Origin: an uncultured Chloroflexia bacterium
GTDB lineage: Bacteria > Chloroflexota > Limnocylindria > Limnocylindrales > CSP1-4
DNA length: 64,000 nucleotides
Assembly: GCA_963752475.1 (NCBI GenBank)
Contig: CAVVYR010000006.1
Coordinates: forward strand, 224,001 to 288,000
Direction of reading: 5' to 3'
Under the pieces are notes generated by a model, which was not told the DNA's origin, searched no databases, and saw only the letters and a program-made list of their open reading frames with translations. The first letter of the stretch is position 1, and the number at the start of each line of letters is the position of its first letter. The translations under genes were made by a program, and so were the position numbers. Of the stretch, positions 10,908 through 15,126 are shown in pieces.

Positions 10908-11425
10908 CGTGTGGATCCCTTCATGTGCACGGCCGAGCGCAAGGCCTCGAACCGCTCGAGCCACGCCTCCAGTCGCTCCTCGTCCGCGAAGAGGACGAGG
11001 ATGGTGTTGTCGCCTGCGAGCGTGCCTTCCTGTTCGTCGAAGCTCGATTCGTCGATGGCCTGACCGATGGCGTTGGCTACCCCCGCCTCGGTCCCGAGCA
11101 GGAGCGTGAGCCCGGAACGGCCGATGTGGATCGGATAGTCCGCGAGCACGCGGCGCAGCCGCTCGTCGCTATCAGCCGACGGGATGGACGCCAGATCGGC
11201 GGGCCAAGCGTAGATGTGCTGCCCATCGTAAGCCACCTTCACGAGGCCCAGCTCCGTGATGTCCCGGCTCACGGTCGCCTGGGTCACATCGAACCCTCGG
11301 TCAGCGAGCAGGTCGACCAGCTGGTGTTGGCTGGAGACGGACTGCGCGGAGACGATCTCGCGCACGGTGTGCTGGCGCTCGCGCTTGAGGGCACGCGAAG
11401 ACATCGGTCGGGTGGTGGAGTCCAT
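10904..11425 (-). CDS. argR: Arginine repressor
   Basis: VTQATVSRDITELGLVKV and GTLAGDNTILV motifs. Confidence 0.95.
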   Translation of the reverse strand: MDSTTRPMSSRALKRERQHTVREIVSAQSVSSQHQLVDLLADRGFDVTQATVSRDITELGLVKVAYDGQHIYAWPADLASIPSADSDERLRRVLADYPIHIGRSGLTLLLGTEAGVANAIGQAIDESSFDEQEGTLAGDNTILVLFADEERLEAWLERFEALRSAVHMKGSTR

Positions 11426-11433
11426 CGCTGGTC

Positions 11434-11462
11434 AGTATACAGCTGCACCGTATCCATATGCA
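11434..11462. promoter_or_regulatory. ARG-box-like sites overlapping argR promoter
   Basis: AGTAT-ACAG-CTGCA and CGTAT-CCAT-ATGCA resemble TGCAT-N4-ATGCA; minus-strand TATACT -10 lies 8 nt before argR ATG. Confidence 0.6.
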
Positions 11463-11520
11463 GTCCTGAGCGTGCGTCGCATGAGTATCGCCGAGCAACA
11501 TGCATATATGAGTGCAGGGA

Positions 11521-11550
11521 TTGTACTTTCGACTCGGAGCCTGCTACAGT
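11521..11550 (+). promoter_or_regulatory. Sigma70-type promoter for the leader and thrC-like gene
   Basis: TTGTAC-18 nt-TACAGT with TGn extension, 8 nt before leader ATG. Confidence 0.65.
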
Positions 11551-11558
11551 CCGCCGCG

Positions 11559-11621
11559 ATGAAGCCTCACGGTACTCGCATGGCGATGCCCAAGGCCCCG
11601 CCGGGATGGGCGAGGGCCTGA
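11559..11621 (+). CDS. Candidate 20-aa attenuator leader peptide MKPHGTRMAMPKAPPGWARA (Met8, Met10)
   Basis: Directly after promoter; codons 12-17 complementary to terminator 5' arm; same layout as the dap leader. Confidence 0.7.
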   Translation: MKPHGTRMAMPKAPPGWARA

Positions 11622-11665
11622 GGGAGCGCGCCCGAAACCAGCGCTCACCATCAGGACGGATCCCC

Positions 11666-11710
11666 GGGGCCGCGACCAACGAAGCGAAGGTCGCGGCCTT
11701 CGTGATTCCT
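11666..11710 (+). terminator. Attenuator terminator before thrC-like gene
   Basis: GGCCGCGACC-11 nt-GGTCGCGGCC followed by TTCGTGATT (weak U-tract). Confidence 0.6.
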
Positions 11711-11763
11711 GAGCACGCCCCGGCTCCGGTGAGAGCCGGTCATGATCGAGAGGATCCATCCCC

Positions 11764-13116
11764 ATGACGCAGATCGCCATCCGCCCCGCTACCGAGACCA
11801 CCGACACCGCACCGGCCCCCATCGGGGGCAGCACGTCGACCACGACCGACCAGAGCTTCACTCCCGGCTACACCGGTCTGCGCTGTCGCGCCTGCGGTAC
11901 CGAGGCCGCTGACGGCCCGGTCTTCGTGTGCAGCCGATGCTTCGGTCCGCTCGAGCCGCAGTACGACCTCGACGGCATCCGACGGCGCCTCACCCGCGAG
12001 ATCATCGACGCTCGCGATCCCGATATCTGGCGCTGGGCGGAGCTGCTGCCGATCACCGAGCTCCCGACCACCGGCCTCCACGTGGGCCAGTCGCCGCTGA
12101 CCGATGCGCCCCGCCTCGCCGCGCGCATCGGCCTCGACAGGCTCTGGGTCAAGGACGACTCGCGCAACCCCTCGCTCTCGTTCAAGGACCGCCCGGTCTC
12201 GATCGCCGCGGCCCGGGCCAAGGCCTGGGGCTACCACACGCTCGCCTGTGCCTCGACGGGCAACCTCTCGGCCGCCGTGGCCGCGGCGGCTGCTGCTCAC
12301 GGACTGCGCTCGGTCGTCTTCATCCCCGCGGACCTGGAGCCGGCCAAGATCGCGCAGGCCCGCGCGCTCGGCGCCACCGTCGTTCGTGTCGACGGGCCCT
12401 ATGACGACGTCAACCGCCTGTGCCTGGAGCTGACCGACGAGCTCGAAGGATGGGCCGTCCTCAACGTCAACCTGCGCCCGTTCTACGCCGAGGGTTCCAA
12501 GACCATCGCCTTCGAGATCGCTCGGCAACTGGGCTGGCGAGCGCCTGATGCGCTGGTGGCGCCACTGGCCAGCGGGTCCATGTACACCAAGCTCGACCGC
12601 GGCTTCGCCGAGCTGACCGAGACGGGCCTGCTGCACGAGGCAGCGGTGCGCTTCTTCGGTGGCCAGGCCACCGGATGCGGCCCCATCGCCAGCGCCTTCG
12701 AGGCCGGTCAGGACGTCGTGCGCCCGGTCGAGAAGCCGGACACCATCGTGCGCTCGCTGGCCATCGGCTCCCCGGCTGACGGTGGCTACGCCATCAAGCA
12801 GGCTCGTGCGAGCGGCGCGGCCATCCTTGGCGTCGAAGACGAGGCCACCATCGACAGCATCCGCCTGTTGGCCGAGACCGAGGGCATCCTCACCGAGACC
12901 GCCGGCGGCGTGACCCTGGCCGCGCTGCGCCGAGCCATCGACGAGGGCCACATCCAGCGCCAAGAGGAGGCCGTGCTGGTCATCACCGGCAACGGCATCA
13001 AGACGCTCGATGTCCTTGCGAACGACGACGCCAACACGTTGCCCGAGCCCATCGCACCCAGCTTCGACGCCTTCGAGGAGTGGTGGCGGAACACGGCCGA
13101 GGAAGCGGCCGCTTGA
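11764..13116 (+). CDS. thrC: Threonine synthase-family PLP enzyme with N-terminal Zn ribbon; possibly O-phosphohomoserine sulfhydrylase
   Basis: CRAC...CSRC, NPSLSFKDR (PLP Lys), CASTGN, EGSKT, VITGNGIK. Confidence 0.85.
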   Translation: MTQIAIRPATETTDTAPAPIGGSTSTTTDQSFTPGYTGLRCRACGTEAADGPVFVCSRCFGPLEPQYDLDGIRRRLTREIIDARDPDIWRWAELLPITELPTTGLHVGQSPLTDAPRLAARIGLDRLWVKDDSRNPSLSFKDRPVSIAAARAKAWGYHTLACASTGNLSAAVAAAAAAHGLRSVVFIPADLEPAKIAQARALGATVVRVDGPYDDVNRLCLELTDELEGWAVLNVNLRPFYAEGSKTIAFEIARQLGWRAPDALVAPLASGSMYTKLDRGFAELTETGLLHEAAVRFFGGQATGCGPIASAFEAGQDVVRPVEKPDTIVRSLAIGSPADGGYAIKQARASGAAILGVEDEATIDSIRLLAETEGILTETAGGVTLAALRRAIDEGHIQRQEEAVLVITGNGIKTLDVLANDDANTLPEPIAPSFDAFEEWWRNTAEEAAA

Positions 13117-13159: not shown

Positions 13160-13188
13160 TTGACGTCGCCGCCCGACTCCGCGACACT
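13160..13188 (+). promoter_or_regulatory. Sigma70-type promoter of the dap operon leader
   Basis: TTGACG-17 nt-GACACT. Confidence 0.6.
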
Positions 13189-13198
13189 ACGCCGCGGA

Positions 13199-13261
13199 AT
13201 GACTCATCTGTATCTTCTCAAGCCGAAGCCCACGCGGCCCTGCCTGGAGGCAGTGGCCTAG
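13199..13261 (+). CDS. Candidate 20-aa attenuator leader peptide MTHLYLLKPKPTRPCLEAVA (Lys8, Lys10)
   Basis: Follows promoter, precedes lysine operon; codons 12-17 complementary to terminator 5' arm. Confidence 0.75.
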   Translation: MTHLYLLKPKPTRPCLEAVA

Positions 13262-13307
13262 ACGGCTTCGCTCGGGAAACCGACTCGGGGCCGCTAGGCC
13301 GGCTCCG

Positions 13308-13350
13308 AGGGCCGCAGACACCGACCAGGGTGACTGCGGTCTTTTTGTTT
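13308..13350 (+). terminator. Intrinsic attenuator terminator before dapB
   Basis: AGGGCCGCAG-A-CACC / GGTG-A-CTGCGGTCTT stem followed by TTTGTTT. Confidence 0.8.
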
Positions 13351-13417
13351 GGCTCGGAGCCAGCTCAGCCGTCTCGTCGGATCGATCACCCAGCCACGAC
13401 GAGGAACCACACCTACG

Positions 13418-14170
13418 ATGCGAGCACTCATCACCGGCAGCGGCAACATGGGCCGTGCCATCGCCAGCGGCCTCGAGGCGCGCGGTGACGACGTGGCGGC
13501 CACGGCCGGCCGCGAGACCGGCTATCCCGCGGCCGCGGAGATCGGCGCCGTCGATGTCGCCTTCGAGTTCAGCCATGACTCCACCCTGCTCGAGCACATC
13601 GACCTGGGGCTCGCCACGGGCTGTCGTGCCTTCGTCGTGGGCACCACCGGCTGGAGTGCCGCTGACGAGATCGGCCAGGCCTTCGCGGCTCGCCTCAGCG
13701 AGAACGGTGCCCGTGCCGTGGTGGCTCCGACGTATAGCCTCGCCGCGGTCCTCTTCGGCGACATCAGCGAGTACGCTGCCCGCCTCTTCGGCGGCTTCGG
13801 CGACTATGACCCCTATCTCTTCGAGCAGCATCGCGCGGCCAAGGCCGACCGACCCTCTGGCACCGCCCTCGCGGTGGCCAACCGCCTGGTCCCACACCTC
13901 AAGGCGAAGCGCGAGGCGCGCCTGGCCACCGACGCGGGCGCGCCCGATCCCGAGGTGTTGGAGATCGTGGCCCTGCGAGCCGGCAGCCACCCGGGCATGC
14001 ACACCGTCGGGTTCGACGGCCCGGGTGAATCGTTGCAGGTCAAGGTCGAAGCCCGAGACCGCTCGGCCTACGTGGCCGGGGCCATCCTCAGCGCCGACTT
14101 CCTCATCGAGCAGCCAGACCGCACCGGCATCACCGCCTTCACCGACCTGGTCCACGAACGGACCGCCTGA
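13418..14170 (+). CDS. dapB: 4-hydroxy-tetrahydrodipicolinate reductase
   Basis: GSGNMG, VVGTTG, EQHRAAKADRPSGTA. Confidence 0.9.
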   Translation: MRALITGSGNMGRAIASGLEARGDDVAATAGRETGYPAAAEIGAVDVAFEFSHDSTLLEHIDLGLATGCRAFVVGTTGWSAADEIGQAFAARLSENGARAVVAPTYSLAAVLFGDISEYAARLFGGFGDYDPYLFEQHRAAKADRPSGTALAVANRLVPHLKAKREARLATDAGAPDPEVLEIVALRAGSHPGMHTVGFDGPGESLQVKVEARDRSAYVAGAILSADFLIEQPDRTGITAFTDLVHERTA

Positions 14171-14205: not shown

Positions 14206-15126
14206 ATGAGCAACCCCATCTTCAGCGGTGCCATCACCGCCCTCGTCACACCCATGAACGCCGACGGCTCGCTCGACGAGGAGACCCTCGTGGCCATGGT
14301 CGAGCGCCAGATCGACGCCGGCATCAACGGCCTCGTGCCGGTGGGCACGACCGGTGAGTCGCCGACGCTCTCGGCCGAGGAGGACCAGCGCGTCATCGAG
14401 CTGACCATCGAGACCGTGCGGCGCCGTGGCGTGGCCGAGACCACGCCCGTCATCGCCGGCACCGGCTCCAACGTGACCCAGCACGCCATCGAGTACACCG
14501 AAGCCGCCATGCGCCTCGGTGCCGATGCCGCACTGGTGGTCTCGCCCTACTACAACAAGCCCGACCAACGGATGCTCGAGGCCCACTACCGCACCGTGGC
14601 TGACGTGGGCCTGCCGGTGGTGGTCTACAACGTCCCCGGCCGCACTGGTGGCAACGTCGCTCCCGCCACCCTCATGCGCCTCGCCGAGCACGAGAACATC
14701 GTGGCTGTGAAGGAAGCCTCGGGCAACATGGAGCAGATCATGACCATCGTGCGTGATCGGCCCGACGGCTTCGCGGTCCTTTCCGGTGACGACAGCTGGA
14801 CCCTGCCGATCATGGGCGTGGGCGGCGATGGCGTCATCTCGGTGGCCTCCAACGAGGTGCCCCAGGTGATGGTCGAGCTCTGTGCCGCCGCGGCTCGTGG
14901 TGACATGCAGACCGCCTGGGATATCCACTACCGCTATCTGGAACTGATGCGGGTGAACTTCATCACCACCAGCCCGGCGCCGGTCAAGGCGGCCATGGCC
15001 GAGATGGGCCTCATCACCGACGCCCTGCGCATGCCCATGATGACCCTCGACGAGGCCAACCGGGCCCGCGTGCGCGAGGTCCTGGCCGACCTCGATCTGC
15101 TGCCAACGGCCGAGGCTGCTGCATGA
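14206..15126 (+). CDS. dapA: 4-hydroxy-tetrahydrodipicolinate synthase
   Basis: GTTGES, PYYNKP, YNVPGRT, AVKEA. Confidence 0.96.
   Translation: MSNPIFSGAITALVTPMNADGSLDEETLVAMVERQIDAGINGLVPVGTTGESPTLSAEEDQRVIELTIETVRRRGVAETTPVIAGTGSNVTQHAIEYTEAAMRLGADAALVVSPYYNKPDQRMLEAHYRTVADVGLPVVVYNVPGRTGGNVAPATLMRLAEHENIVAVKEASGNMEQIMTIVRDRPDGFAVLSGDDSWTLPIMGVGGDGVISVASNEVPQVMVELCAAAARGDMQTAWDIHYRYLELMRVNFITTSPAPVKAAMAEMGLITDALRMPMMTLDEANRARVREVLADLDLLPTAEAAA

Follow-up and report, generated by a model that had tools for sequence, protein, structure and literature searches.

A short leader at positions 11521–11710 of a 64,000-nucleotide (nt) stretch of DNA from an uncultured Chloroflexia bacterium of the order Limnocylindrales (contig CAVVYR010000006.1, positions 224,001 to 288,000; hereafter the window) quite probably works as a transcription attenuator in which a translating ribosome senses charged elongator Met-tRNA. 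A reading of this DNA from sequence only had proposed such sensing ahead of a gene of the threonine synthase family. Comparison with relatives supported the proposal, in that two Met codons of the leader were conserved and paralogous leaders with Lys, Met-Cys or Cys codons were matched to the corresponding pathways. Judged by its sequence relatives, the element is one of a previously undescribed family of paralogous Met, Lys and Cys leader attenuators in Limnocylindrales, whose specificity appears to be set by two or three codons. A Lys-codon paralog built on the same scaffold before dapB-dapA provides what we regard as the decisive evidence for codon sensing. The parts of the Met leader are as follows.

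11521–11526, + strand: −35-like hexamer TTGTAC of the leader promoter, read from the sequence; TTGCC/TTGCA-type hexamers lie at the same place in most of 22 orthologous leaders
11542–11550, + strand: extended −10 element TGC-TACAGT (TG at 11542–11543, TACAGT at 11545–11550), read from the sequence, ending 8 nt 5′ of the leader ATG
11559–11621, + strand: leader open reading frame (ORF) of 20 codons plus UGA (stop at 11619–11621), encoding MKPHGTRMAMPKAPPGWARA with one Thr codon; from the ORF call
11580–11588, + strand: regulatory codons ATG GCG ATG (Met8, Ala9, Met10); sequence and leader comparison
11594–11618, + strand: hairpin H1, with segment A (5′ arm and loop, GGCCCCGCCGGGAU) and segment B (3′ arm, GGGCGAGGGCC); RNAalifold consensus
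11617–11655, + strand: middle hairpin H2, CCUGA..GAGCGC / GCGCUC..UCAGG, including the stop codon; folding
11660–11671, + strand: segment E1, AUCCCCGGGGCC, the 3′ strand of the antiterminator, which pairs with 11594–11607; complementarity, folding and covariation
11668–11709, + strand: terminator, with 5′ arm GGCCGCGACC (11668–11677), 11-nt loop, 3′ arm GGUCGCGGCC (11689–11698) and tail UUCGUGAUUCC; folding and alignment
11685–11702, + strand: alternative hairpin CGAAGG / CCUUCG from terminator loop and tail, predicted upon antiterminator formation

The two promoter hexamers are separated by 18 nt, and a TAnnnT/CAnnnT box lies 6–9 nt 5′ of the start codon throughout the leader alignment, with no Shine-Dalgarno sequence between the −10 box and the leader ATG. 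The leader stop codon is located directly 3′ of H1 and inside H2. The antiterminator comprises 12 bp (GGCCCCG-CC-GGGAU at 11594–11607 with AUCCC-CGGGGCC at 11660–11671), and the last four bases of E1 (GGCC) are the first four of the 5′ arm of the terminator, so that the two helices overlap. The terminator hairpin (11668–11698) has a GC stem of 10 bp. The sequence-only reading had located the same promoter (TTGTAC-18-TACAGT), the ATG GCG ATG at codons 8–10 of a leader with a single Thr codon, the long-range pairing that overlaps the terminator 5′ arm, and the stop codon within the middle hairpin; all of these were found at the positions listed. Its caveat of a weak U-tract was also justified, given that the tail UUCGUGAUUCC is U-poor. 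The 221-nt leader folds with a z score of −2.96, and 1 of 200 shuffled sequences folded equally well.

The Met leader is present upstream of the orthologous gene in all 22 usable loci of the genus, where it aligns readily and where its start, frame and length are kept without exception. In public genomes, a covariance model (R1) that we built from these 22 sequences identified the element ahead of the ortholog at 29 of 80 loci. Conservation of the Met-x-Met pattern had been set beforehand as a test of the proposal; all 43 distinct Met-type leaders retain the second ATG, and 41 of them retain the first. Within the 20-codon length class, codon 10 is ATG in 34/34 distinct leaders and codon 8 in 32/34. 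Codons 2–7 vary freely, with 7–12 different codons per position and no insertion, deletion or stop, while the −10 box, the start codon at a set distance from it, and the frame are fixed across leaders. H1, E1 and the terminator are nearly invariant, and the middle hairpin changes in sequence and length yet remains a hairpin. Distant leaders, whose ortholog proteins are 62–69% identical, retain ATG GCG ATG, sometimes one codon later, although much of the downstream RNA sequence differs.

Lysine, cysteine and further methionine leaders

In addition to the upstream element, R1 gave weaker matches downstream of the regulated gene in 12 loci and, in the window, at 13194–13357. The second leader in the window and the genes that follow it are described below.

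13160–13188, + strand: promoter of the Lys leader, TTGACG, 17 nt, GACACT, then 10 nt to the ATG; sequence, with the same layout in 12 other loci
13199–13261, + strand: Lys-type leader ORF of 20 codons, encoding MTHLYLLKPKPTRPCLEAVA, with AAG CCG AAG at codons 8–10 (13220–13228); R1 24.6 bits, R2 (family model, see below) 98 bits
13236–13352, + strand: switch of the Lys leader, with H1′ at 13236–13258, E1′ at 13301–13313 and a terminator at 13310–13341 followed by UUUUUGUUU; folding and covariation
13418–14170, + strand: dapB-like gene; TIGR00036 94 bits, below the cut-off of 122; start at 13418 from alignment with relatives
14206–15126, + strand: dapA; TIGR00674 325 bits, above the cut-off

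The Lys leader repeats the architecture of the Met leader. Its stop codon (UAG, 13259–13261) is directly 3′ of H1′ and pairs with CUA within 13294–13300, its antiterminator is the minimum free energy (MFE) structure before the terminator 3′ arm exists, and its terminator has a strong U-tract (UUUUUGUUU). AAG-NNN-AAG is present in 13 of 13 Lys-type leaders.

An order-wide search with R1 gave matches in 33 of 151 genomes. The family to which the window's genus belongs had matches in 32 of 108 genomes, and a small-genome sister family in none of 42. With the family model R2, two to four members per genome were found in five genomes. Leaders of the type K-P-K, K-A-K, K-K-K or K-S-K-S-K precede dapB in 13 loci as well as in L119, L124, L126 and L128, and M-C-M or M-M-S-M leaders precede homocysteine-synthase/MetY-type genes in L118, L120, L123 and L128. 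M-C-M leaders also stand before an OsmC-related gene (L117) and a SCO4226-like gene (L054, minus strand). Cys-codon leaders (C-P-C, C-L-C and C-V-C-M-C; L122, L129 and L125) precede genes of sulfur assimilation, whose products are a protein resembling 3-mercaptopyruvate sulfurtransferase (score under the cut-off), a transferase with hexapeptide repeats and a sulfite/nitrite reductase. Terminators with good U-tracts were found in relatives, namely in Lys leaders (UUUUUGUUU), in L020 (UUUUGUUGUUUU) and in M-C-M leaders (UUUUUGGUU). As side observations, the metY-type ORF of L118 ends after 177 codons, and the M-C-M leader of L054 (2044–2200, minus strand) is divergent from the M-A-M leader of the same locus and precedes a SCO4226-like (PF14026) gene.

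The identity, number and spacing of the sensor codons thus track the pathway while frame and scaffold persist, which is the signature of ribosome-mediated sensing and argues strongly against a ligand-binding RNA. If the leader were instead a metabolite-binding riboswitch or a protein- or tRNA-binding RNA, with the ORF incidental and the conserved AUGGCGAUG an RNA motif, the unusually high conservation (for an attenuator) of H1, E1, the terminator stem and the tail would be accounted for, as would the conservation of synonymous positions around the Met codons; in L017, where ATG is changed to ATC, a possible GCAU/AUGC mini-stem is also retained. We nevertheless consider this explanation very unlikely, given that paralogs switch AUG to AAG or UGY in step with the pathway, that codon number and spacing vary (KKK, KSKSK, CVCMC) with the frame kept, and that codons 2–7 drift within an ORF whose start codon, frame and stop stay conserved. 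A search of 11300–11900 against Rfam at E values up to 10 returned only two chance-level matches, both to eukaryotic families; neither the model for the SAM-I riboswitch (RF00162), which binds S-adenosylmethionine (SAM), nor any T-box family matched this region, and T-box features were not found.

An arrest peptide, R-M-A-M-P, that stalls the ribosome on free Met or SAM in the manner of TnaC and tryptophan, rather than through a shortage of Met-tRNA, would be in keeping with the conserved R/x-M-A-M-P/R motif, in which Pro follows the second Met in 28 of 34 leaders, and with the Pro of the K-P-K-P motif in the Lys leaders. The residues NH2-terminal of the motif, which would occupy the exit tunnel, are not conserved, however, and family members replace the key residues by Lys or Cys in varying number. 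With the geometry of this leader, ligand-induced stalling would moreover be expected to raise expression at high Met, the wrong sign for a biosynthetic gene, and we regard such a mechanism as extremely improbable. Sensing of the charged tRNA by codon-specific stalling remains the reading that we prefer.

In the genome of the window, R1 identified the Met leader only, and R2 and nhmmer (with Met and family profiles) identified only the Met and Lys leaders; weak extra nhmmer matches fall inside coding regions. It had been suggested that the scaffold might occur upstream of metH as well; the only other copy found in the genome was that before dapB. Two other screens for more members were dropped as too unspecific: a promoter-plus-small-ORF regular expression, which yielded 290 candidates (102 with an X-n-X pattern), and a combination of terminator and long-range pairing. 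Two weak R2 matches, L127 (G055:C1:197300-197465) and L130 (G074:C12:25923-26100), are alike each other and unlike the leader family; they share a GGGAGAUCUG.GCCCA motif and a ...GAGCCGUGGGCCAGAUCGGGCCCCCGGCUUUUUUGAUGCC terminator, and they probably represent a different conserved leader RNA.

The regulated gene and the SAM-I riboswitch

The gene controlled by the Met leader was assigned as follows.

11764–13116, + strand: regulated gene, a ThrC-family enzyme dependent on pyridoxal phosphate (PLP) with an N-terminal Cys4 ribbon, MetM-like; PF00291, and TIGR00260 at 247 bits

Its NCBIfam name would be threonine synthase (TIGR00260, 247 bits), and a sequence search of the PDB with the enzyme matched only threonine synthases. 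The same genome carries a canonical thrC (321 bits) elsewhere, in a hom-thrC-...-aspartate kinase (ask) cluster, and the product of 11764–13116 is 37% identical to the thrC product of this hom-thrC-ask operon. Of 51 scanned loci with orthologs from other lineages (Chloroflexota outside this lineage, Actinomycetota, Acidobacteriota and further phyla), 42 bear a SAM-I riboswitch (RF00162) immediately upstream of the gene (14/20, 20/20 and 8/11). Nine loci with the riboswitch were tested for the gene that follows: in eight it codes for a ThiS-family protein of ~90 amino acids and in the ninth for a GHMP kinase; in the window no ThiS gene is adjacent to 11764–13116, and two ThiS-family genes are located elsewhere in the genome. 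A metM-metO arrangement is described in Appendix 4 of the GapMind preprint (bioRxiv 10.1101/2024.10.14.618325), in the part of that text accessible to us, and the metM of Streptomyces albulus has an upstream SAM riboswitch according to the accessible text of PMC12172450. Given that SAM-I upstream and a ThiS-family gene downstream of the orthologs correspond to this arrangement, and that the gene is an extra paralog besides the canonical thrC, it is best called MetM-like. The annotated threonine synthase is therefore most likely a methionine-pathway enzyme, as far as sequence and gene context indicate. A third ThrC-family paralog (NF006050, 554 bits) was noted at G000:C6:17498-19000 (L116 3498-5000), where it adjoins a LacI-family regulator.

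The earlier suggestion that the leader stands in place of a SAM riboswitch was upheld by these data: in contrast to the other-lineage orthologs, none of the 9 leader-bearing loci scanned has a SAM-I match, and the window itself lacks an Rfam match in the region searched. The sole SAM-I match in this genome (G000:C18:21433-21523, minus strand, in L034) scored 46.2 bits against a cut-off of 44.4 and lies 5′ of an ORF of ~330 codons; the contig that bears it may be foreign, the assembly being rated as 5.8% contaminated. In two loci from Dehalococcoidia metagenome-assembled genomes, L077 (about 2257–2421) and L113 (2229–2451), a SAM-I aptamer is followed by a Met-rich small ORF (sORF) before the ortholog. 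The sORF ends with ...HRMAMR in L077 and with ...QMSMPMVMR in L113, followed by UAG and a hairpin, and GGAAGG is present 5–8 nt 5′ of its start. These loci may represent a tandem sensor of SAM plus Met-tRNA or an evolutionary intermediate.

We lean towards a view in which Limnocylindrales possess one modular, codon-programmable scaffold, in which a leaderless ORF (~20 codons) carries two or three sensor codons 5–7 nt before a hairpin and is combined with a 1:3-type antiterminator and a stop codon within a helix. This scaffold would have been retargeted to Met-, Lys- and Cys-tRNA by duplication and codon swapping and would have displaced an ancestral SAM-I riboswitch before metM, with the Dehalococcoidia loci as dual sensors or intermediates. 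If so, changing ATG8/ATG10 to AAG should make the leader respond to lysine instead of methionine. The paralogs, which are distinguished essentially by two codons, would constitute a natural specificity swap and a template for engineered amino-acid sensors.

With regard to the surroundings of the leader, argR lies upstream on the minus strand, and the genes for the ThrC-family PLP enzyme, the dapB-like protein and DapA lie downstream. Between argR and the leader promoter, AT-rich palindrome-like motifs occur at 11435–11516 amid GC-rich surroundings: GAGTATACAG and ATGCA...TATGCAG near the argR start, and CATGCATATATG immediately 5′ of the −35 hexamer. Most of the 22 orthologous loci contain these motifs too, which may be ArgR operators, in which case the promoter of the Met leader would adjoin an Arg-box.

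Alternative folds and the proposed switch

For analysis of covariation we used a model-based alignment of 43 rows, from which six spurious rows had been removed. For the terminator, 401 of 414 cells are paired, and two positions show G-C/A-U exchanges; for H1 the count is 331 of 369. In the antiterminator core, where 255 of 294 cells are paired, an exchange of C-G (29) to U-A (13) is seen between Met and Lys leaders, and the helix that contains the stop codon covaries as well (UGA:UCA versus UAG:CUA); all these exchanges amount to a small number of independent events, most of which separate paralog groups. Subfamilies differ in the loop-side part of the antiterminator (GGGAUC/GAUCCC, UGGAG/CUCCG, CGGAGCGA/UCGUCUCCG and others). 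Cognate loop-side pairing was more stable than non-cognate pairing (−12.0 versus −9.5 kcal/mol; permutation p = 0.0005 for 11 non-independent representatives), and A:E1 energies that included the GGCCCC core did not discriminate between cognate and non-cognate pairs.

When the transcript was folded without the terminator 3′ arm, the antiterminator (A:E1 enclosing the extended middle helix) was the MFE structure in 18 of 22 genus sequences with no mask and in 21 of 22 with a mask for a ribosome stalled at codon 8. For the family, the corresponding numbers were 36 of 40 members with all RNA 5′ of A masked and 27 of 40 with the RNA free. The MFE structure of the full-length transcript contains the terminator. 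In every family member, the GGCCC of segment A begins 5–7 nt 3′ of the second regulatory codon and so sits at the edge of a ribosome stalled there. The alternative hairpin CGAAGG/CCUUCG is present in the MFE structures of several orthologs under the stall mask; such a hairpin would explain the near-invariance of CGAAGG and CCUUCGUG.

These features suggest the following mechanism. We infer that transcription starts at the leader ATG or a few bases from it, giving a leaderless or nearly leaderless mRNA, and that a ribosome translates the 20-codon leader. When charged Met-tRNA is scarce, the ribosome would stall with Met8 or Met10 in the A site, parked just 5′ of segment A (from 11594). Segment A, together with the H1 loop, could then pair with E1 (11660–11671), and A:E1 and the extended middle helix would form one long antiterminator that sequesters the basal GGCC of the terminator, with the result that RNA polymerase would read through into the MetM-like gene. 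When Met-tRNA is plentiful, the ribosome would pass A and B and reach the stop codon, itself part of the middle helix; full formation of the antiterminator would thereby be prevented, the terminator would form, and transcription would end near 11705.

Several observations weigh against this mechanism. The leader offers only two Met codons, and 2 of the 43 Met-type leaders lack the first of them (ATC in L017, TTG in L050). The Ala codon GCG and its flanking bases are conserved at synonymous sites, which hints at an additional constraint at the RNA level. The position of the stop is not universal, as the lineage L014/L060 and the Dehalococcoidia locus L077 end the ORF right after MAMR. With regard to termination, the tail of the window terminator is U-poor (UUCGUGAUU has 4 U in 8), and a consensus scan of 11300–11900 called neither a sigma-70 promoter nor an intrinsic terminator, both being weak by E. 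coli rules. Among public runs, all available as contigs, two contigs from an RNA library (run X18) that are identical to the window span 11654–11936, from before the terminator into the gene; they may stem from carried-over DNA, transcript ends cannot be read from contigs, and stretches without cover are uninformative. In equilibrium folding of the window's own sequence, the probability of the terminator was ~1.0 in every ribosome state. Between stall and stop-codon masks, compared for 32 of the 40 family sequences, terminator probability under the stall was lower in 14, higher in 2 and unchanged in 16, the window's sequence being among those unchanged. With a ribosome at the stop codon, the A:E1 core was still the MFE partner in 16 of 40 sequences. 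The outcome of such folding depends on the footprint assumed: a ribosome stalled at codon 10 covers part of A if its footprint is set to +16, and in the genus it still covers 2 nt of A at +13. The evidence for the half of the proposal in which a passing ribosome leaves only the terminator is thus weak, and the choice between the two folds is probably kinetic.

A classical 2:3 antiterminator, in which B would pair with the terminator arm, was also considered and rejected; inspection of the alignment by eye revealed 9 of 10 pairs in some sequences and no conservation. A screen for long-range pairing of terminator arms flagged 179 of 502 terminators in the genome, and far-upstream pairing of a terminator arm in an MFE structure is therefore by itself a weak criterion.

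The poor U-tract of the window and the negative terminator scan could also be explained by attenuation at the level of translation, with the terminator hairpin as a structural element or a partial terminator. The GGAUCC in E1 (11659–11664) is self-complementary with the GGAUCC of the Shine-Dalgarno region of the gene (GAGAGGAUCC), a context that is kept in about half of the genus, and translation is the step controlled by the leaderless sORF attenuators that come nearest among those studied by experiment (bioRxiv 10.1101/834739, in the accessible part of its text). Many family members, however, have canonical terminators with a hairpin and a U-tract. The Shine-Dalgarno sequence lies ~45 nt past the terminator and varies by subgroup while the switch is retained, and the antiterminator overlaps the foot of the terminator stem rather than the Shine-Dalgarno sequence. 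We thus judge control of translation alone to be unlikely and, as an addition to termination, possible. The conserved terminators of the paralogs, with their good U-tracts, favour termination of transcription.

Comparison with known systems

Transcription attenuation by a leader peptide is the principle of the classical attenuators trpL, hisL, leuL, thrL, ilvL and pheL. This principle is summarized in the accessible text of PMC8079986. The Met leader resembles trpL-type attenuators in that a short ORF with codons for the end product of the pathway precedes a biosynthetic gene, that antiterminator and terminator helices are mutually exclusive, and that the stop codon lies where a ribosome that has not stalled would disturb the antiterminator. 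It differs in that the regulatory codons number only two and are one codon apart, that the mRNA appears to be leaderless, and that the antiterminator is of a 1:3 type, formed by the 5′ arm and loop of the first hairpin, rather than of the classical 2:3 type. The amino acids sensed by the family (Met, Lys and Cys) and the host phylum, Chloroflexota, also set it apart.

Mycobacterial polycysteine sORFs, which are leaderless, act by unmasking a ribosome-binding site, as described in the accessible part of Canestrari et al. (bioRxiv 10.1101/834739). As far as the sequences suggest, the present family shares with them leaderless sensory sORFs at several loci that respond to one amino-acid signal (a "ribulon") and the control of a downstream operon by ribosome pausing at cognate codons. 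Unlike the mycobacterial sORFs with their runs of Cys codons, so far as the accessible text of that preprint describes them, the leaders in Limnocylindrales have two or three sensor codons and a conserved scaffold re-used for three amino acids in a different phylum. They also possess a conserved terminator/antiterminator pair, with GGAUCC:GGAUCC pairing to the Shine-Dalgarno region being possible in part of the genus only. If the proposed mechanism holds, leaderless sensory sORFs, which have so far been studied in Actinobacteria, would also organize amino-acid regulons in Chloroflexota.

The leaderless metL predicted before metNIQ in Streptomyces lividans TK24 has been proposed to be a Met-dependent attenuator (PMC8079986, accessible text). 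In common with the Met leader, which appears to be leaderless as well, it is a leaderless sORF with Met codons (and, in metL, also Cys codons) before a methionine-related operon. The prediction of metL, unlike the family described here, is based on RNA-seq of one genome, shows no clear terminator according to its authors, precedes a transporter and has no sequence similarity to our scaffold. Our literature search, which excluded subscription-only papers and supplements, yielded no experimentally tested Met or Lys leader-peptide attenuator, the S. lividans prediction being the nearest, and no paper on leader-peptide transcription attenuation in Chloroflexi. The methionine and lysine pathways are textbook cases of control by riboswitches or repressors, and it is against this background that Met and Lys leader-peptide attenuators stand out.

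A functional counterpart is the SAM-I riboswitch, which holds the same position before the orthologous gene in 42 of the 51 other-lineage loci and presumably has the same output, namely repression when methionine or SAM is plentiful. The riboswitch senses SAM directly and without translation, whereas the Met leader would sense Met-tRNA through a translating ribosome. The two arrangements would represent a natural case in which a riboswitch for SAM gave way to a ribosome-based sensor of Met-tRNA in front of one and the same gene.

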